This document shows positions 2,107-31,776 of a stretch of 54,792 nucleotides of DNA, piece by piece. This DNA is from a bacterium (GTDB lineage Bacteria; Patescibacteriota; Minisyncoccia; JAHIHE01): contig JAUYBG010000011.1 of assembly GCA_030693205.1 (NCBI GenBank), positions 1-54,792 on the forward strand, given 5' to 3'. How positions within the stretch are numbered: position 1 is the stretch's first letter; every line of letters begins with the position of its first letter. Below the pieces are notes generated by a model. It searched no databases. It saw only the letters and a list, made by a program, of their open reading frames with translations, and was not told where the DNA came from. A program made the translations under genes and the position numbers.

Positions 2107-3510
2107 CTATTTAACTGCCTGCAACTTAACCGTAACTTGAGTGCCGACGCCTTCCATGCTTTCTAAAGTAATTGATCCTTTCATCAACTCAATGATCTGC
2201 TTAGTGATCCAAAGCCCCAAGCCGGTTCCGACGATCTTGCCGGTTTTTTCGTTCTGCACCCGATAGAATTTTTCAAAAAGATGCTTTTGCTCCTCGCCGG
2301 ACATACCGATACCAGTGTCGACAACTTTAATTTCCACTAAATTATTCTTCACCATAGTTGTAACCTTTACGCTTCCTTTTTCAGTATATTTTACCGAATT
2401 GCCGATCAGATTTATCAACACTTGCCTCAATCTCTCCGAATCCGCCGAAACCAAAGGAAGTTTTTTATCCGGCTGTGAGTATTCCAGTATCAATTTTTTT
2501 TCATCGGCATTGACTTTCAACTGCGACACTATATCGCGGATGATCGGTTCCAATTCTACTGGCGCCATCGCCACCGGAAACCGGCCTTGCTCAATGCGGG
2601 AAACATTCAATAAATCTTCCACCAGCCCTTCCAGCCGATTATTGGACTTAGCCGCCGTATTCAAAGCTTTCTCAATTTCCGGATTTTCTATCTTACCAAA
2701 TGTTCCCTCCAGGATCATCGAAAGATAGCCTTTGGTAACGGTCAATGGAGTCCTTAATTCATGAGAAGCGATCGAAATAAATTCATCTTTCATCTGATCA
2801 ACCTCTTTTATTTTCCGATACAAAATCGCGTAATCCCAGATTCGGACGGTAAACGCCAAAAATATGATCACTGCAATAATTGTTATGAAAAGCAGATAGA
2901 ACGAAGCGTCTCTGATATCTTTCGCGTTATCGTCTATCAATTTTGACGAAATTTTCATTGCGAGCAGCGCCTCTTTTTTGTCAGAGATCCCCTTCATCGG
3001 CATTGCCACCAGCCAGAATCTGTCTTCGACTGAAAATCCCTCAATAAAACTTTTGCCTTCAGCAGTAGTCGCCAATTGCAAAGAATCGGTAGCGATCGAC
3101 TCGTCGTCTTTCAAAGACCAGGCCAGAGTATAAAAATAAAAATTCACGCTTTTCCCGATATCTTCTTTTTTCGAAGAAGCGATGGTTTTAAAATTATCTT
3201 CATCGGGAATAAGTATAGACAGCTCTTTTAGATCGGTATCTTCAGCCGACATTTTATCGATCGCTTTTTGCAACAATTCTTGATCGCCCAGATCCTGTCC
3301 GACCATAGACCGAATCAGGCGGCCTACTGTTACTTGCTCTCTTTGCAAAGTAGTATCCAAGTTCTCGCTAAAATTTATAACATTGCTATAGGTGTTGTAA
3401 GCTATTAACGCGGGAATAAGAATGATCAAAAATACGCCGTAAATTATCTGAACAGTTTCCTTGTTCTTTGTGATAAATTCCCTAAAATTAAACCCGTTGA
3501 AAAATTTCAT
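2107..3510 (-). CDS. Sensor histidine kinase (two TM segments, extracytoplasmic domain, HisKA + HATPase_c)
   Basis: H-box SHELRTPLT, N-box LINLIGNSVKYT, G1 DTGIGM, G2 GTGLGLWI. N-terminal and mid-protein hydrophobic helices are present. No response regulator gene is adjacent. Confidence 0.9.
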   Translation of the reverse strand: MKFFNGFNFREFITKNKETVQIIYGVFLIILIPALIAYNTYSNVINFSENLDTTLQREQVTVGRLIRSMVGQDLGDQELLQKAIDKMSAEDTDLKELSILIPDEDNFKTIASSKKEDIGKSVNFYFYTLAWSLKDDESIATDSLQLATTAEGKSFIEGFSVEDRFWLVAMPMKGISDKKEALLAMKISSKLIDDNAKDIRDASFYLLFITIIAVIIFLAFTVRIWDYAILYRKIKEVDQMKDEFISIASHELRTPLTVTKGYLSMILEGTFGKIENPEIEKALNTAAKSNNRLEGLVEDLLNVSRIEQGRFPVAMAPVELEPIIRDIVSQLKVNADEKKLILEYSQPDKKLPLVSADSERLRQVLINLIGNSVKYTEKGSVKVTTMVKNNLVEIKVVDTGIGMSGEEQKHLFEKFYRVQNEKTGKIVGTGLGLWITKQIIELMKGSITLESMEGVGTQVTVKLQAVK

Positions 3511-11512: not shown

Positions 11513-11974
11513 ATGGCAATTGATACCGACGCGGCTATCGCGAGAAATAGAGAAAGAGAATTGCGAGAAAATTTGGAAAAAATTTCCAAAAAACTAACAA
11601 AAGGAGGCAATGATTCCACTGAAGCGCTTTACCAATTACAAGAAGTGCTGGATAGATCGGACACATTCGGCCTCGCCGGAAAAATAAATCCAAGACTGGT
11701 TTCTGTAGTGTGGATCTTGAAAAAATTTATCCACGACCTTTGGACAAATATGGGTGGGGATAACCCGGGCTTCCCAAAAGACGAAGGAACGCAGATTCTC
11801 CAGGATATCGCAAGACATCTCGGCGTATTTATCCAAAACTCCCTGTTCAGAAACAGGCCCAGGGATTCTATAGGAACTTTTGAAGATGTAATAAAGTCTT
11901 ATTATGCCTTGCTGCACCTCGCCGAAGAATACTATAAAAAAGAGGATCGCAGAAAAGAATTCGTGGTGCTCTAA
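11513..11974 (+). CDS. Hypothetical protein (153 aa)
   Basis: AGGAGG at 11496-11501. A TTGACA-like -35 lies upstream. No recognisable motif. Confidence 0.6.
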   Translation: MAIDTDAAIARNRERELRENLEKISKKLTKGGNDSTEALYQLQEVLDRSDTFGLAGKINPRLVSVVWILKKFIHDLWTNMGGDNPGFPKDEGTQILQDIARHLGVFIQNSLFRNRPRDSIGTFEDVIKSYYALLHLAEEYYKKEDRRKEFVVL

Positions 11975-26351: not shown

Positions 26352-26819
26352 CTACAATTTTAACTTCTTTTTAATAAATTCTATTTCTTTGGAAACTTCT
26401 GCTCTAAAAACTTCAAATCGCTTATCAAGGTCGTTCCAATTATTTTGATTATCATTATATTGTTTATTTATCGTATCAATATTTTTCTCAATGGTCATAA
26501 TTTTTTCCCCTTGAACGCCTTGCTCGCGATAAACTGAAATATATCCTCCAATAACAAGAAAAATCACTCCGCTTATTAAGGCTATTATCCAATTATCGTA
26601 TAAAAAATCTTTAACGCTTAACAATGCTGATTTTTTTTGAAATCGGGGTTTTTCTATTTCTTTGTCTTCAAAAGACGACGAATCTGTTTTCTTTAGATCA
26701 ATAGGATCTTCTTCTGTTTTGTTTAAAGCGAATTTTGATAATAAAAATCTCCCGTAAGCGTCTTTTTCGTAAAGAGTTTTACCGGCATGAATTAGCCTAT
26801 TTATCTTTTTTTGCTTCAT
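26352..26819 (-). CDS. Small single-pass membrane protein with C-terminal coiled coil, hypothetical
   Basis: 155 aa. TM helix IIALISGVIFLVIGGYISVY. Heptad-like Asn/Lys/Glu-rich C-terminus. The start lies 23 nt inside the upstream ORF. Confidence 0.65.
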   Translation of the reverse strand: MKQKKINRLIHAGKTLYEKDAYGRFLLSKFALNKTEEDPIDLKKTDSSSFEDKEIEKPRFQKKSALLSVKDFLYDNWIIALISGVIFLVIGGYISVYREQGVQGEKIMTIEKNIDTINKQYNDNQNNWNDLDKRFEVFRAEVSKEIEFIKKKLKL

Positions 26820-27495
26820 AATTATTTAACCAAGAATAGTAATTTTTTTCCAAGAAACTCTTTGCATCGTCAAAAACTTTTTCTGTAAAACATTCTCGTA
26901 AATCTTCCGGCGCCGGATCATAATAATATTGATAATCAAGGCTAGCGAGCGTCGCTTCTTTTATTTCAATAAAATTGTATATTGCATTTTTATAATCACT
27001 TACCCCTTTCCGATACAACGCTTCTACAACAGAGTCTTTTTTTGAAAACGAAATATTGATATTTTCTGTATCGTTTATTTTGTTTTCAGTTAAAAGATTC
27101 ACCGCCTGATCAAGGTTTTTGTTTTTTCCAATTTTATGAGAAAAAATAATCCCTATTCTTTTTATATTTTTTAATTGATACTCTTTAAATAAAACATTTT
27201 TAAAATAATTAAAAATATCATCTCGTATCCAGGCATACTTTTTTTCAAAATTTTTATTTACTACGATTCCAAGTATCAAGTCATCTGTGTTGATTCTCAA
27301 ATATTCTTCAGTAACAGAATTGTATAATGTTTTTTCACGACGCGAGTTTTCCTGCATTTCAGGAAAAAAATCTGCTCCAAACGGCGTTTTGTCACTATAA
27401 AGAATATTATCAATAATATCTCCGGCTATATCGGGTATACGAAAAGATTTTGCATATTTTATACCTACAGTTAATCCGATTATATTGTCTTTCAT
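26797..27495 (-). CDS. Hypothetical soluble protein (232 aa), translationally coupled to the membrane protein
   Basis: No catalytic motif recognised. Size and a KRIGIIFSHKI segment weakly recall the uncharacterised TIGR04255-type family (unverified). Confidence 0.65.
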   Translation of the reverse strand: MKDNIIGLTVGIKYAKSFRIPDIAGDIIDNILYSDKTPFGADFFPEMQENSRREKTLYNSVTEEYLRINTDDLILGIVVNKNFEKKYAWIRDDIFNYFKNVLFKEYQLKNIKRIGIIFSHKIGKNKNLDQAVNLLTENKINDTENINISFSKKDSVVEALYRKGVSDYKNAIYNFIEIKEATLASLDYQYYYDPAPEDLRECFTEKVFDDAKSFLEKNYYSWLNNYEAKKDK

Positions 27496-27555: not shown

Positions 27556-27960
27556 TTAATTTGATAAAAAATAGATAATCTTTTTTATAACCAAATTTAG
27601 ATCTTTTTCAATCTCATGCTCCCAAACTCTCAAAACTTTCCAGCCTTCCCTTTTTAGTTTTGCCCTGTTTTTCTTGTCGCGCTTAATATTATTTTCAATT
27701 TTTGCTTGCCAGTATTTTTTTGGAAGCCTTTTTCTTGTTTTTGCAAATCGCCAGCCGTGCCAAAAATCACCATCAACAAATACTGCTTTTTTCTTTTTTG
27801 GCAACGCTATATCCGGGTGGCCAATCGCTTTTGAATAATATCTCTGAAAATAAATTTTTCTTTTTCTGAGCTCCCTGAAAATTATTTTTTCAATCCCCGT
27901 ATTCTTAGAACGGATTTTAGACATTACCTCGCTTCTCTTTTTCTTAGTAAAAGTGTCCAT
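27556..27960 (-). CDS. vsr: Very short patch repair endonuclease
   Basis: MSKIRSKNTGIEKIIFRELRKRKIYFQRY, HPDIALPKKKKAVFVDGDFWHGW, WKVLRVWEHE. Confidence 0.9.
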   Translation of the reverse strand: MDTFTKKKRSEVMSKIRSKNTGIEKIIFRELRKRKIYFQRYYSKAIGHPDIALPKKKKAVFVDGDFWHGWRFAKTRKRLPKKYWQAKIENNIKRDKKNRAKLKREGWKVLRVWEHEIEKDLNLVIKKIIYFLSN

Positions 27961-27990
27961 ACCGTATTTTAAAACATGTGGATAACTGCC

Positions 27991-28019
27991 TTGATTTTCG
28001 GTTTATTTTCGGTTATAAT
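27991..28019 (+). promoter_or_regulatory. Promoter TTGATT-17-TATAAT of the LexA-methyltransferase gene, overlapped by two TTTTCGGTT direct repeats
   Basis: -35 at 27991-27996 and -10 at 28014-28019. Repeats at 27995-28003 and 28006-28014, with an 11-bp period. Confidence 0.55.
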
Positions 28020-28052
28020 TAAATTGTAGCACAAACTAATTTTTATTACAAT

Positions 28053-29630
28053 ATGCAAACTCTAACAAAAAAACAAAAACAAGTCTTTGATTTCATTAGC
28101 GCCTATCAAACAGAAAATGGAATTTCTCCTACAATAGAAGAAATAAGAAAAAAGTTAAAGCTCAAAGCAGTATCAACGATACATGAACATATAAATACGC
28201 TGAAAGAAAAAGGCTATCTTTCGAAAAATGATAATTCTGCTCGGGGTATAACTTTAAGAAAAGAGGAAAGAATAATTATTAATATTCCAATAATCGGGAA
28301 AATAGCTGCAGGAAAACCAATTGAAGCTATTGAAGATTTTCAAGAAAATATATCTGTATTGAATCCAGCTATCAAAAATCCGAAAAATTACTACGCTCTT
28401 CGCGTAGTTGGCGATAGCATGATTAACGAAGGAATTTTCAATGGCGATACTGTGATAATTAAAAAACAATCTTCTGCAGAAAATGGCCAAACTGTCGTTG
28501 CTATTATAGATAACAACGAAGCAACGCTTAAAAAACTTTACAGAGAACGGAACAGGTTCCGTCTTGAGCCTAGAAACCCAAACATGCTACCCCTTTATAG
28601 AACTGAGGTCGAAGTAAGAGGCGTTGTCGTTCAGGTAATAAACAATGTTTCCGGCGAACCAGAAAAGAAAACTGTAAAAAAAACTCGGCATGGATTCAAA
28701 ACGCTAGATCTTTTTGCTGGGGTCGGCGGAATACGCCTAGGTTTTGAAAAAGCTGGATTCAATACTGTTTTTGCGAATGACTTCGATGAACAATGCAAGA
28801 TTACTTATGATTTAAACTTTCTAACATCAAAACTTGTAGTCGAAGATATAAGAAAAATTGGAATTAATGATTTGCCAAAATTCGATTTTCTGTTAGGCGG
28901 TTTCCCTTGCCAGCCTTTTTCTATTGCAGGATATAGACAAGGATTTAACGATAAAAAAAATAGAGGAAATCTGTTTTTTGATATCGTAAAAATCATAGAA
29001 GCGAGGAGGCCTGAAGGTTTCTTGCTTGAAAATGTAAAAAATCTAAAGAGCCACGACGGCGGAAATACCTTCAAAACTATTGAAAAAATACTGAAAAACT
29101 TGGGCTACTATGTAAAAGCAAGGGTGCTGAATAGCATGGAATACGGCAATATCCCTCAAAATCGAGAAAGAGTTTACATTGTAGGGTTCAAAAATAAAGA
29201 TTATACTGATAATTTTTTATTTCCAGATCCAATCAAACTAACAAAAAAGATTACTGATTTGTTAGAAAAAAGTGTTCCGGAAAAATACTACTACAACGGC
29301 AAGCCGCTATTCGCGAAACTAAAGGATTATATAAAAGAATATGGAAAAGTTTACCAATGGCGCAGACAATATGTACGAGAAAATAAAAGCGGGGTTTGCC
29401 CAACACTAACCGCAAATATGGGTACGGGGGGGCATAATGTTCCAATTATAAAAGACAAAAAAGGCATTCGAAAGCTAACTCCTCTTGAATGCGCGCGCAT
29501 TCAAGGTTTTCCTAAAAATTATAAATTACCGCAGATTGCCGACTCTGCATTATATAAACAATTTGGAAATTCAGTAAGCGTTCCGGTTATTGAAGCTGTG
29601 GCAAAACAGATGATGAGTGCCATGATGTAA
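28053..29630 (+). CDS. Fusion protein: full-length LexA (wHTH + S24 autoprotease) joined to a DNA (cytosine-5) methyltransferase
   Basis: LexA part: IAAGKP (Ala86-Gly87), VVGDSM (Ser122), ATLKKL (Lys160). MTase part: LFAGVGG (I), GFPCQPFS (IV), ENVKNL (VI), QNRERVYIVG (VIII), GNSVSVPV (X). It is a single 525-codon ORF without interruption. Confidence 0.9.
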   Translation: MQTLTKKQKQVFDFISAYQTENGISPTIEEIRKKLKLKAVSTIHEHINTLKEKGYLSKNDNSARGITLRKEERIIINIPIIGKIAAGKPIEAIEDFQENISVLNPAIKNPKNYYALRVVGDSMINEGIFNGDTVIIKKQSSAENGQTVVAIIDNNEATLKKLYRERNRFRLEPRNPNMLPLYRTEVEVRGVVVQVINNVSGEPEKKTVKKTRHGFKTLDLFAGVGGIRLGFEKAGFNTVFANDFDEQCKITYDLNFLTSKLVVEDIRKIGINDLPKFDFLLGGFPCQPFSIAGYRQGFNDKKNRGNLFFDIVKIIEARRPEGFLLENVKNLKSHDGGNTFKTIEKILKNLGYYVKARVLNSMEYGNIPQNRERVYIVGFKNKDYTDNFLFPDPIKLTKKITDLLEKSVPEKYYYNGKPLFAKLKDYIKEYGKVYQWRRQYVRENKSGVCPTLTANMGTGGHNVPIIKDKKGIRKLTPLECARIQGFPKNYKLPQIADSALYKQFGNSVSVPVIEAVAKQMMSAMM

Positions 29631-30194
29631 CTACCAAATTTTAATGTTTTTTCCTATTGGCTTAATTCTATAAGGTTTAATTATATCATTGATTATACTA
29701 AACCTTGGCCGTCTTTTTTCTTTTTGCTGAAGTTCCATTGTTTGCCCGTGATTTACCTTATTTTTATAGATTAATTTGTTGGGAATTTCATATACGTCAA
29801 AAGTTCCATCCAATTTCTCTTTTTTATAAAAACTCATAAAATAAAGCTTATCCCATTCGCTTTTTGGACCAAAAGAAGTTAAGTCTGCCTCTATACTGCT
29901 AGCCTTAATCTGCTCTCTCTCGCCTGTTTCTAAATTAATCGTATCAAATGAAACAGAGCCCTTGCCTTTCAATTTTCTTTGAAATCTCACAGAATTAGAA
30001 AATACACAGAACATCCCCTCAGACAAAACCTCGGGAATATTAACTTTTCTGCCATATTTACCAAGCCCATCATTCAGCTTAACCCAAATATCAAAAAGTT
30101 TTTTAAAAGTTTTTGCATCTACCTTGCTAAAGCGCGCAACCTCTACTTCAATTTCACCTTCTTTTGTTTTAATTATACATTTATTCAGTTTCAT
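29631..30194 (-). CDS. Candidate type II restriction endonuclease (cognate of the methyltransferase; possibly Bsp6I-like)
   Basis: 187 aa, convergent, and abutting the MTase stop with zero spacer. VSFD...GEREQIKASS gives a possible PD-(D/E)xK-like core. The family assignment is from memory and context only. Confidence 0.45.
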   Translation of the reverse strand: MKLNKCIIKTKEGEIEVEVARFSKVDAKTFKKLFDIWVKLNDGLGKYGRKVNIPEVLSEGMFCVFSNSVRFQRKLKGKGSVSFDTINLETGEREQIKASSIEADLTSFGPKSEWDKLYFMSFYKKEKLDGTFDVYEIPNKLIYKNKVNHGQTMELQQKEKRRPRFSIINDIIKPYRIKPIGKNIKIW

Positions 30195-30262: not shown

Positions 30263-30610
30263 TTACAATTTATTATATTTTGTATGCTTCCCTTTTGCTT
30301 TTTCAACCGGATACTTTTTCCCGTTTTTTATAAGTTTATCCTCCACCGCTTTTTTTATATCAATATCCAAGCCATGCGCAATATCCATTAAATAAATAAA
30401 AACATCGGCAATCTCATCTCCGATTTCGTCTTTATTTATTTTTATATATTCTTCAATTTCTTTTTCATTTTTCCATTGAAAATGCTCCAAAACTTCCGAA
30501 GCTTCCAAAACAAGTGAAATTGCCAGGTCTTTGGGCTTATGAAACTGTTTCCAGTCTCTTTCGTCTCGAAATTTAATGATTTTTCCCGTTAAATCTTTAA
30601 TGTCTGACAT
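30263..30610 (-). CDS. DCTPP1/RS21-C6-like all-alpha MazG-family nucleoside triphosphate pyrophosphohydrolase
   Basis: FRDERDWKQFHKPKDLAISLVLEASEVLEHFQWK and EIGDEIADVFIYL closely follow the dCTP pyrophosphatase 1 pattern (ERDWEQFHQPRNL...GELAELFQWK). Confidence 0.8.
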   Translation of the reverse strand: MSDIKDLTGKIIKFRDERDWKQFHKPKDLAISLVLEASEVLEHFQWKNEKEIEEYIKINKDEIGDEIADVFIYLMDIAHGLDIDIKKAVEDKLIKNGKKYPVEKAKGKHTKYNKL

Positions 30611-30699
30611 AATTTTGTTATAAATCGTATTAAAACCTATTTAATTAAAATTATCTATCAAATTTTACCTCAATCTGACCATAAAATCAACGGAATATA

Positions 30700-31776
30700 T
30701 CACTCAAATTTCGCCATTTTTTCTTTCCACTTCCCGATAACTTCCGGCTCGACTAAGACCGGATGAAAGACCAAATTGCTGTCATTGTACCGGATGCGCG
30801 CTTTCGGACTGCCAGTCAAAGGATTTTTTTCGATAAAATAAACTTGTAATTTTTTAAAATATTTTTCAAAACGATCGCCGACAAATCCGGAAAGTAAAAA
30901 CTCAAAAAAATGTTTGATTTTAAGCGATACGCCTTTCAAAGGAATCGTGCGCAAATTCTTTTCCAAGCTTCCCGAGGAAGAATACGTATAATTTTTTATC
31001 CAGGAATTTTCCTTAAAAAACTTTTTGTAAAGATTGAGGTCTCCCGACAAGGGCAGAAGATTCAAATATTCCTCTGCTTTATAAAGATTGCCGAAATCTA
31101 TGCCCAGTGATCTGTCGGTAATATAATGATTGAGGCAAAGCCGGTTTTCCGTCTTGCCGGTATGCCGATACACGCCGAATAAAAGCGTAAAAAAAGTCAG
31201 CGCCGCGCGCGCCGTCCAGATTCTTCCGTATTTCGCGACGATCAAGAGATCAATATCCGATTCTTTTTGCGGATTTCCGATGGCTGTTGAACCGCTGATC
31301 ATTATCAGGCGGATGAACGGAAGATAAGAAATAAATTTTAAGATCCATTTTGATCTTTTAAATTTTTGGTCGGTTAATTTCTTGCTTTGAATTCTTTGCT
31401 TGATCATCTCTTTCCGCCCGCGCAAAAAATAAAATCCGTTTTTTTGTTCGATTGTTTTTTTTAAGATCGTGCTGTTGTCTAAAATTTCTATGATTTCCGA
31501 AAATGATAGTTTCCCATTGTCATCCTGAATTTTCAAATTATCGTTCTTGATTTGTTCTGTGTCATCCTGAACTTGTTTCAGGATCTTATCGTCTCGCTTT
31601 TCGGCTTTTATAGATCCCGAAATAAATTCGGGATGACATTGCGGGTATGGCTTTATCAAATACTGATAAATCTCCCCTGCCGTCAGCGGATAATTAAAAT
31701 AATCGTAATAAGCGATCGTGGCGAAGATTGAACGCTCAAAATTGGATATTGAACCTTGCCGATTTTGGCTTGACAT
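30700..31776 (-). CDS. Nucleotidyltransferase-fold protein with N-terminal winged-helix-like region; carries in-frame hairpin-repeat insertions
   Basis: ISGSTAIGNPQKESDIDLLIV (GS...DxD pol-beta NTase motif). Residues about 46-86 (CHPEFISGS...ILKQVQDD...KIQDD) are encoded by mini-hairpin repeats. Confidence 0.6.
   Translation of the reverse strand: MSSQNRQGSISNFERSIFATIAYYDYFNYPLTAGEIYQYLIKPYPQCHPEFISGSIKAEKRDDKILKQVQDDTEQIKNDNLKIQDDNGKLSFSEIIEILDNSTILKKTIEQKNGFYFLRGRKEMIKQRIQSKKLTDQKFKRSKWILKFISYLPFIRLIMISGSTAIGNPQKESDIDLLIVAKYGRIWTARAALTFFTLLFGVYRHTGKTENRLCLNHYITDRSLGIDFGNLYKAEEYLNLLPLSGDLNLYKKFFKENSWIKNYTYSSSGSLEKNLRTIPLKGVSLKIKHFFEFLLSGFVGDRFEKYFKKLQVYFIEKNPLTGSPKARIRYNDSNLVFHPVLVEPEVIGKWKEKMAKFE
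31519..31640. repeat. Cluster of GTCATCC-type hairpin mini-repeats inside the 30700-31776 CDS
   Basis: GTCATCCTGAA at 31519 and 31561. Hairpins ATCCTGAA-N5-TTCAGGAT (31564-31584) and ATCCCGAA-N5-TTCGGGAT (31614-31634). Confidence 0.7.

Follow-up and report, generated by a model that had tools for sequence, protein, structure and literature searches.

The expression of restriction-modification (R-M) genes is known to be controlled by C proteins, by methyltransferases (MTases) bearing a helix-turn-helix (HTH), by methylation-sensitive promoters and by antisense RNAs (PMC3874152). None of these known controls takes a physiological signal, and the same review names LexA only for toxin-antitoxin systems. 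In the HTH-MTases (the class of M.SsoII, M.Ecl18kI, M.EcoRII and M.MspI; PMC3874152), an N-terminal DNA-binding domain is attached to a C5 cytosine MTase, the operator overlaps the promoter of the MTase gene (M), and negative autoregulation sets the ratio of M to the endonuclease gene (R). Here we describe a gene from a 54,792-nucleotide contig of a Patescibacteriota bacterium (JAUYBG010000011.1; the whole contig is called the window below), in which a LexA repressor is fused in frame to a C5 MTase. This gene resembles those of the HTH-MTases in its N-terminal DNA-binding domain and in a candidate operator that overlaps the M promoter. However, the HTH of those enzymes is short, whereas the regulatory part of the fusion is a LexA of about 200 residues with an S24 Ser/Lys autoprotease and an Ala-Gly site, and is potentially destructible by a signal. 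Furthermore, M and R are divergent in the HTH-MTase systems. In contrast, they are convergent with abutting stop codons here, and in some loci the LexA module is encoded by a separate gene upstream of M.

Other described regulators share single features with this gene. C proteins are likewise dedicated small transcription factors that time the expression of M against that of R. However, they are XRE-type activator/repressors of about 80 residues that act at the C-R promoter and possess no protease, whereas the LexA module would act at the M promoter and coexists with them. The LexA of the SOS response (TIGR00498; structures 1JHH and 3JSO) corresponds to residues 1-199 of the fusion. The cleavage site and the catalytic dyad are common to both, as is an auto-operator at the promoter of the gene (a candidate in the case of the fusion). 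In contrast to SOS LexA, the module described here is fused to, or in an operon with, an R-M MTase, lies in an accessory island of low GC content and gives no indication, in the available DNA, of a regulon of several genes. The λ CI repressor, SetR of SXT and the LexA-like repressors of Thermus prophages also couple accessory genes to the RecA signal of the host through an S24 autoprotease. These proteins, however, stand alone and control lysogeny or transfer, whereas the repressor described here is tied to one R-M enzyme gene. In Thermus phages, defense genes are found beside prophage LexA-like repressors (bioRxiv 10.1101/2024.08.14.607894), which is a different arrangement. A preliminary description, made from the DNA letters of the window, had recognized no described system with such logic. 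Likewise, we found no description of the architecture in the full-text literature (LexA or S24 with MTase, R-M, and the Candidate Phyla Radiation (CPR) or Patescibacteria), of which a paper on the SOS network of Patescibacteria (pmid 28618189) was not part.

On balance, and with modest confidence, we propose that the fusion gene is the M gene of a Type II cassette, with vsr divergent upstream and R convergent downstream, and that its LexA part is a dedicated, cleavable autorepressor through which DNA damage would raise M and lower R. The LexA-MTase pairing, which occurs across many Patescibacteria, suggests an undescribed tie of self-protection to DNA-damage signaling.

The preliminary description had read an uninterrupted open reading frame (ORF), the LexA hallmarks and the MTase motifs from the sequence by eye. 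All of these were found as described, with the codons of the cleavage site correctly placed (Table 1). The LexA_DNA_bind, Peptidase_S24 and DNA_methylase profiles all matched the product. Over residues 1-199, the product scored 183 bits against the 203-position lexA equivalog model of NCBIfam (TIGR00498; cut-off, 111 bits). In alignments with the structures of Escherichia coli LexA (1JHH and 3JSO), residues 1-65 match residues 1-65, and Ser122 and Lys160 correspond to Ser119 and Lys156. The MTase half scored 334 bits with the NCBIfam model TIGR00675 (dcm) and 414 bits with MTase_II of PADLOC. Thus, both halves clear the curated profile cut-offs. The closest solved relative of the MTase half is M.HhaI, an enzyme with the target GCGC, to which it aligns from end to end (199 bits). 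Its motifs are present in the canonical order (I, LFAGVGG; IV, GFPCQPFS; VI, ENVKNL; VIII, QNRERVYIVG; X, GNSVSVPV), and Cys286 and the core motif residues are invariant in 30 homologues. The protein is not a stand-alone LexA of about 200 residues, because an MTase of 312 residues follows residue 213, and its regulatory region goes beyond a short HTH extension: it is a complete LexA with the S24 protease domain. The LexA half is 31-34% identical to characterized LexA proteins. Judged from these matches, the N-terminal ~200 residues are apparently a complete, self-cleaving repressor of the LexA type. ATG codons are absent between residues 178 and 362 of the ORF. Therefore, there is no obvious isoform that consists of the MTase only. 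It should be mentioned that the MTase coding region contains a hairpin with a 10-bp stem, TCTTGAATGCGCGCGCATTCAAGG, followed by TTTTCC (29483-29506, plus strand), about 125 nt before the stop codon. The hairpin TCTTGAATGCGCGCGCATTCAAGG resembles a terminator; however, it encodes the conserved TPLECARIQGFP motif and is probably incidental.

The fusion is not confined to the window. A search of 5.8 billion proteins gave at least 120 protein clusters (76-86% identity, 100% coverage, 524-551 residues) with all three Pfam domains, and these clusters came from NCBI, JGI, ENA and Logan assemblies. When one genome per species was scanned, about 75 loci with a complete fusion were obtained. The carriers are metagenome-assembled genomes of Patescibacteria, namely Nomura-, Moran-, Giovannoni-, Uhr-, Falkow-, Vogel-, Staskawicz-, Zambryski- and Doudnabacteria. 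In about 70 of the ~75 loci, the ORF is intact, encodes 520-528 residues and has the same junction. Because related systems have separate lexA and M genes 0-25 nt apart, we considered whether adjacent lexA and dcm genes had been merged by a sequencing error during assembly or annotation. The probability of this is practically nil: the ~70 intact ORFs come from independent assemblies and show saturated synonymous divergence, and the same-length fusion in at least 120 clusters and ~75 genomes excludes the missed stop, frameshift or chimeric join against which the preliminary description had cautioned. Complete homologues of at least 69% identity, on contigs with enough room, are encoded by a single ORF, except in the degraded locus L071. 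In L071 (CAVVHK010000021.1, 347 kb, labeled delta proteobacterium), only 28 codons precede a break in the ORF, and tblastn gave a match in pieces. The fusion is also found on several short contigs assigned to taxa outside the CPR; they are probably mis-binned. In the databases, the relatives are labeled "transcriptional repressor LexA" or "DNA (cytosine-5)-methyltransferase 1". A phage origin of the fusion was rejected, because viral contigs and a phage collection contained no relatives of the fusion and gave only ordinary LexA/CI-like proteins of 31-34% identity.

Between the fusion loci, synonymous sites are saturated (median synonymous divergence, pS, 0.77-0.80). Recent horizontal spread is thereby ruled out as the cause of the high protein identity. 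The nonsynonymous divergence (pN) is 0.17 in the DNA-binding domain (pS 0.79), 0.16 in the S24 domain and 0.105 in the MTase domain, against 0.36 in the Lys-rich linker. Every domain is thus under purifying selection and the linker alone is relaxed. Because saturated synonymous divergence is combined with low pN, the fusion appears to be old and each of its domains to be maintained by selection. Moreover, Ala86, Gly87, Ser122 and Lys160 are invariant in 76 of 76 LexA modules, including modules on other MTases. These observations bear on the idea that the S24 domain is only structural, serving DNA binding and dimerization in a simple autorepression such as that of M.SsoII and M.EcoRII, with no cleavage in vivo and no link to damage. 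For the conserved operator in the promoter spacer, autoregulation would be explanation enough, and autorepression by the N-terminal HTH of MTases is established (PMC3874152). Furthermore, one database homologue (P0009) has Ala-Ser in place of Ala-Gly. However, the Ala-Gly pair, the Ser and the Lys have stayed invariant in all 76 modules despite saturated synonymous sites, and a simple HTH, which other MTases use, would do if catalysis were dispensable. We therefore regard a purely structural S24 domain as unlikely. P0009, like the disrupted L071, is possibly a decaying or non-cleavable variant.

The region upstream of the fusion gene is conserved as well. The promoter hexamers match the consensus in 10 of 12 positions, and the position and sequence of the promoter are conserved in 73 aligned loci, in which the ATG lies about 33 nt past the −10 element. 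This conservation is found although the flanks of the loci share no synteny. The direct repeat TTCGG-N6-TTCGG, our candidate operator, occupies the −35/−10 spacer (Table 1), and its columns have the highest information in the upstream alignment. In 647 kb of fetched DNA, it occurs in 75 copies at fusion promoters and in only 2 copies elsewhere; in the window, the copy at the fusion promoter is the sole exact one. The repeat was not found upstream of the partner endonuclease genes in the fetched loci. When metagenomes were scanned for TTTCGGNTTNNNTTCGGT, 78 of 80 loci among the matches listed were chance or low-complexity matches, and the scan gave no information on a regulon. The LexA box of Alphaproteobacteria, GTTC-N7-GTTC, is also a direct repeat with an 11-bp period.

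The repeat differs between LexA classes. In the class of the window, the repeat is TTTCGG and the recognition helix of LexA is AVSTIHEH. In contrast, loci L079-L087, L089 and L090 have the repeat YYTTCT-N5-YYTTCT and the helix SVSTAH[YF][YH] in the same promoter architecture. Because the repeat changes with the recognition helix, this covariation points to the repeat being the LexA operator; it is suggestive, not strict. The layout of L091, an unfused lexA-N6_N4 MTase locus, is an exception: at about 3420-3470, it has TTCGA-N6-TTCGA in inverted orientation and lacks the TGTGGATAA box.

A second conserved element, TGTGGATAAC, lies just upstream of the −35 hexamer in essentially every LexA-MTase promoter (L001-L090). 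The gap between TGTGGATAAC and the −35 hexamer is about 6 nt in the consensus and 4 nt in the window. Exact copies of the 9-mer lie close to the start of the fusion in 55 loci, compared with 15 copies in the rest of the 647 kb. The TGTGGATAA element has exactly the DnaA-box consensus sequence and is constant across LexA-MTase classes that differ in helix and repeat. Because it stays constant while these change, it is probably read by a factor other than LexA. The element may couple the expression of M to DnaA and the replication status, or it may be read by another factor. In L057, three copies of TGTGGATAA were considered as an origin-like cluster; this was rejected, since a glycosyltransferase gene contains all three, probably by chance. 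Three 9-mers with one mismatch to the DnaA box also occur within 110 bp of the window (11727-11837), in or overlapping an ORF of 153 residues with no Pfam match.

The divergent vsr gene has a homologue in the same position, about 92 bp upstream of the fusion, in about 14 of 76 related loci. A promoter-like site on the minus strand is a candidate vsr promoter (Table 1); its −10 element is the reverse complement of the conserved leader TTGTAGC.

Other MTases are found with the same LexA module as well. In L077, which has the same promoter, it is fused to an Eco57I-type amino-MTase (7 clusters). In L079 and L080, it is fused to an N6_N4 MTase, and the convergent nucleases are BsaWI-like or of the MvaI/BcnI family. 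In L063, the module is fused to a C5 MTase that is 45% identical to that of the window, with an unrelated partner, and in P0217 it is fused to a C5 plus Eco57I double MTase. Loci of the L063, L077, L079 and L080 types first looked like stand-alone LexA genes and proved to be fusions to other enzymes. Furthermore, a search with the L079-type module gave many complete "LexA" proteins of 196-206 residues from Patescibacteria. Of seven sampled "stand-alone" relatives, six are encoded 0-25 nt upstream of an R-M MTase gene and the seventh lies in a defense- or phage-like island. The MTases downstream of such unfused genes (L081-L088, L090 and L091) are of the C5 plus Eco57I type (832-839 residues) or the N6_N4 type (about 528 residues). 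A convergent gene follows the MTase in most of the six unfused loci. Two unfused loci also encode a HinfI-family endonuclease, and in L090 this gene is co-directional with the MTase. Thus, the module is portable among R-M MTases and is fused to at least four types other than that of the window; the association is general in this group, and the fusion is one of its two forms. Because unfused lexA-M operons exist, the fusion is not essential to the regulatory logic. The preliminary description had laid out this logic for the fusion.

These loci help to judge whether the LexA half could be the only LexA of the cell, governing a genome-wide SOS regulon, with the MTase as an orphan Dcm-like passenger and the link to restriction incidental. 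The N-terminal half does exceed the cut-off of the lexA equivalog model, uvrA is only 2 kb away, no second LexA/S24 protein was found in the 54.8-kb window, and NCBI labels the relatives as the transcriptional repressor LexA. However, the repeat was not found at the uvrA promoter of the window, and its two occurrences in the 647 kb of flanks are at chance level. Moreover, at least five different MTases have the module fused to them or encoded directly in front of them, and each of these MTases has a nuclease partner of its own; the cassette sits in a low-GC island at a genomic position that varies among loci. We consider a housekeeping LexA with a passenger MTase quite unlikely. SOS boxes of the Gram-positive type (GAAC-N4-GTTC) were not found in the window, which is below the chance expectation; this result is neutral between the readings.

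The preliminary description had placed the fusion gene between vsr and a convergent candidate endonuclease. Profile matches identified both neighbors, the latter as a Type II endonuclease of the Bsp6I family (Table 1). The stop codon of the endonuclease gene abuts that of the MTase gene in the window, with a gap of 0 nt. This geometry recurs. Wherever the contig extends far enough, the fusion is followed by a gene in the opposite orientation. In 64 of 68 loci, the stop codons of M and R are separated by −12 to +10 nt, with exact abutment in 29 (the window among them). No terminator was predicted on the plus strand downstream of M in the window. Because no terminator separates the abutting convergent genes, the state of the M promoter may set the levels of both M and R.

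The convergent partners belong to at least eight unrelated families, although the MTase is about 84% identical throughout. The Bsp6I-like family (187 residues) is the largest, with 23 loci. Two further families match profiles, one NgoFVII_C-like (about 390-420 residues) and one of the PD-(D/E)XK type (about 150 residues), with 4 loci each. Five families have no Pfam match; their members have about 360 (13 loci), 287 (7 loci), 349 (6 loci), 279 (4 loci) and 315 residues (3 loci). Among the partners of all LexA-MTases, the profiles matched were RE_Bsp6I, NgoFVII_C, PD-(D/E)XK, MvaI/BcnI, BsaWI and HinfI. We considered whether the specificity of the MTase varies with the partner. This idea was rejected: the MTase identity is 0.85 within partner families and 0.84 between them, conservation within the MTase is highest in the target-recognition region (residues 400-475), and no position of the MTase is partner-specific. 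Bsp6I cleaves GCNGC, and NgoFVII cleaves GCSGC (REBASE). Because the partner families include RE_Bsp6I and NgoFVII_C, the target of the MTase is probably GCNGC or a close relative. It is plausible that a methylase of the GCNGC type could protect against several of the partner enzymes. The five families with no Pfam match are candidates for new endonucleases of GCNGC-related specificity.

In about 13 of the 23 Bsp6I-type loci, an HTH_3 C gene of 75-86 residues lies 2 nt upstream of R (for example, L013 6142-6402 and L038 6154-6381, both on the minus strand). No C gene was found in the cassette of the window, where a MazG-like gene precedes R instead. Since classical C genes precede R in these relatives, the LexA-MTase cassettes are bona fide Type II systems, and LexA adds to the control by C proteins and does not replace it. 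The preliminary description had presented LexA as a regulator in place of a C protein; it was right that the regulator is a full S24 autoprotease, whereas the replacement did not hold.

The invariant catalytic residues, the purifying selection, the operator in the promoter spacer and the several MTase partners together support a role of the LexA part in regulating the MTase and the balance of R and M. We propose the following mechanism. The fusion protein would dimerize via its S24 domain, bind TTCGG-N6-TTCGG in the −35/−10 spacer and thereby repress its own transcription. The divergent vsr gene would probably be repressed too, since its candidate promoter crosses the operator. Transcription of M would run antisense into R, because the two genes are tail to tail with no gap and no terminator, so that high activity of the M promoter would damp R. 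Upon entry into a naive cell or loss of the repressor, M would be high and R low; as the fusion protein accumulates, M would be throttled and R expressed. DNA damage, including breaks made by the endonuclease of the system itself, would lead to RecA filaments and to cleavage between Ala86 and Gly87. We infer that RecA filaments are the most economical trigger of repressor loss. Cleavage would detach the DNA-binding domain from the S24-MTase body, M would be derepressed and the balance would shift toward protection. Type I restriction is alleviated after DNA damage because ClpXP degrades HsdR. The outcome proposed here is the same, namely less restriction pressure upon damage to the chromosome or in the presence of unmodified sites on it. 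However, Type I alleviation is a post-translational proteolysis of R, whereas the control proposed here would be transcriptional, through a cleavable repressor on a Type II M gene.

Several points weigh against this mechanism. The operator assignment is based on conservation only; L091 has the helix SVSTAHFH and yet its repeats are TTCGA, inverted and placed directly after the −10 element, and L088 possesses no clear repeat. An AlphaFold2 model of the fusion (30-sequence alignment) has a mean pLDDT (predicted local distance difference test) of 63 and a pTM (predicted template modeling score) of 0.53, with values below 50 in the S24 core and the linker; with this quality, the cleavage loop and the domain packing are not judgeable from the model. 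The recA gene was not found in the 54.8-kb window. In the window, GCNGC is not avoided (181 observed against 161 expected), nor is GCGC (observed/expected 0.95). The site composition lends no support to an active, long-resident endonuclease and is neutral to slightly negative. The carrier organisms are all uncultured, and the mechanism is a proposal from sequence. Finally, if the S24-MTase fragment were degraded after cleavage, the net effect could be the opposite, namely less methylation.

LexA fragments are protease substrates in E. coli. If cleavage destabilized or mislocalized the MTase, methylation would fall and the endonuclease would cut the chromosome, as a suicide switch for abortive infection or post-segregational killing. 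The MTase is made only as a fusion, given the absence of ATG codons noted above, and its stability would be tied to that of the S24 fragment; furthermore, R-M systems are known as addiction modules that induce SOS (PMC3874152). However, cleavage would also derepress the promoter and raise synthesis, in the unfused lexA-M operons the logic is retained although the stability of the MTase does not depend on cleavage, and methylated DNA stays protected for at least one generation. We consider such a switch improbable.

If this mechanism is correct, R-M control would for the first time have a plausible signal input, DNA damage, which would be received by the LexA autoprotease attached to M. This makes testable the long-standing question of how Type II systems spare the host when its chromosome is damaged or under-methylated. 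As a more tentative proposal, which we regard as possible rather than probable, the LexA-MTase loci form a Patescibacteria class of damage-responsive Type II R-M systems. In this class, the LexA autoprotease, fused to M or encoded shortly before it, would sense RecA filaments, also those provoked by the endonuclease of the system, and its cleavage would switch to high M and low R, as a feedback on autoimmunity and a form of Type II restriction alleviation with possible coupling to DnaA, and LexA-M would be a docking platform at which unrelated endonucleases of overlapping specificity are exchanged. One strongly conserved MTase, joined at a precise junction to partners of at least eight unrelated families, illustrates how endonucleases are swapped in nature, and the partner families are a source of new enzymes, which probably recognize GCNGC-related sites. 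In addition, "LexA" annotations in CPR/Patescibacteria need to be reread: with 6 of 7 sampled relatives linked to R-M, they may mostly mark R-M regulators and not SOS master regulators. Reconstructions of SOS networks in the superphylum are affected by these R-M-linked genes.

Table 1. Features of the LexA-MTase cassette and its promoter region in the window
Feature	Position	Strand	Evidence or remarks
vsr, very-short-patch T:G mismatch endonuclease	27556..27960	-	Pfam Vsr 71 bits; TIGR00632 96 bits; PADLOC Vsr
TGTGGATAAC box	27977..27986	+	Perfect match to DnaA-box consensus; upstream of -35
Fusion promoter	27991..28019	+	-35 TTGATT 27991-27996; 17-nt spacer; -10 TATAAT 28014-28019
Candidate LexA auto-operator	27997..28012	+	Direct repeat TTCGG-N6-TTCGG, 11-bp period; fills -35/-10 spacer
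Promoter-like site, candidate vsr promoter	28023..28051	-	TTGTAA-17-TACAAT with TG; would cross the operator
lexA::C5 MTase fusion gene	28053-29630	+	Single ORF, ATG to TAA, no interruption, 525 residues
LexA winged-HTH DNA-binding domain, residues 1-65	28053..28247	+	PF01726 LexA_DNA_bind 61 bits
Peptidase S24 catalytic/dimerization domain, residues 79-193	28287..28631	+	PF00717 105 bits
Ala86-Gly87 autocleavage site (predicted)	28308..28313	+	Aligned with E. coli LexA Ala84-Gly85
S24 catalytic dyad, Ser122 and Lys160	28416-28418 and 28530-28532	+	Alignment to E. coli LexA
Lys-rich variable linker, residues 196-213	28638..28691	+	Least constrained segment; pN/pS 0.44
C5 cytosine DNA MTase domain, residues 215-521	28695..29615	+	PF00145 DNA_methylase 309 bits
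Convergent Type II endonuclease, Bsp6I family	29631..30194	-	PF09504 RE_Bsp6I 55 bits; PADLOC REase_II 91 bits

At about 26.0-31.0 kb of the window, the GC content is low (0.28-0.37), and the cassette is part of this island, which lies between groES/groEL and uvrA (0.42-0.50) in an otherwise housekeeping segment of the chromosome. No phage or integrase context was seen around the fusion. Between groES and vsr, the island contains two overlapping ORFs of 155 and 232 residues (26352-27495, minus strand). They gave no match in Pfam, NCBIfam or PADLOC and are not conserved beside other copies of the fusion; the two may form a further accessory or defense pair. Between uvrA and the endonuclease gene (30263-31776, minus strand), a MazG-like nucleoside triphosphate pyrophosphohydrolase (115 residues) and a protein of 358 residues with a nucleotidyltransferase fold are encoded. 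R may be co-transcribed with these two genes, which are on the same strand. Among the 4-bp palindromes of the whole window, GGCC is the rarest relative to expectation (observed/expected 0.48); ACGT, GTAC and CTAG come next, and GATC is over-represented (1.25). These biases suggest past or present pressure from R-M systems other than the cassette described here.

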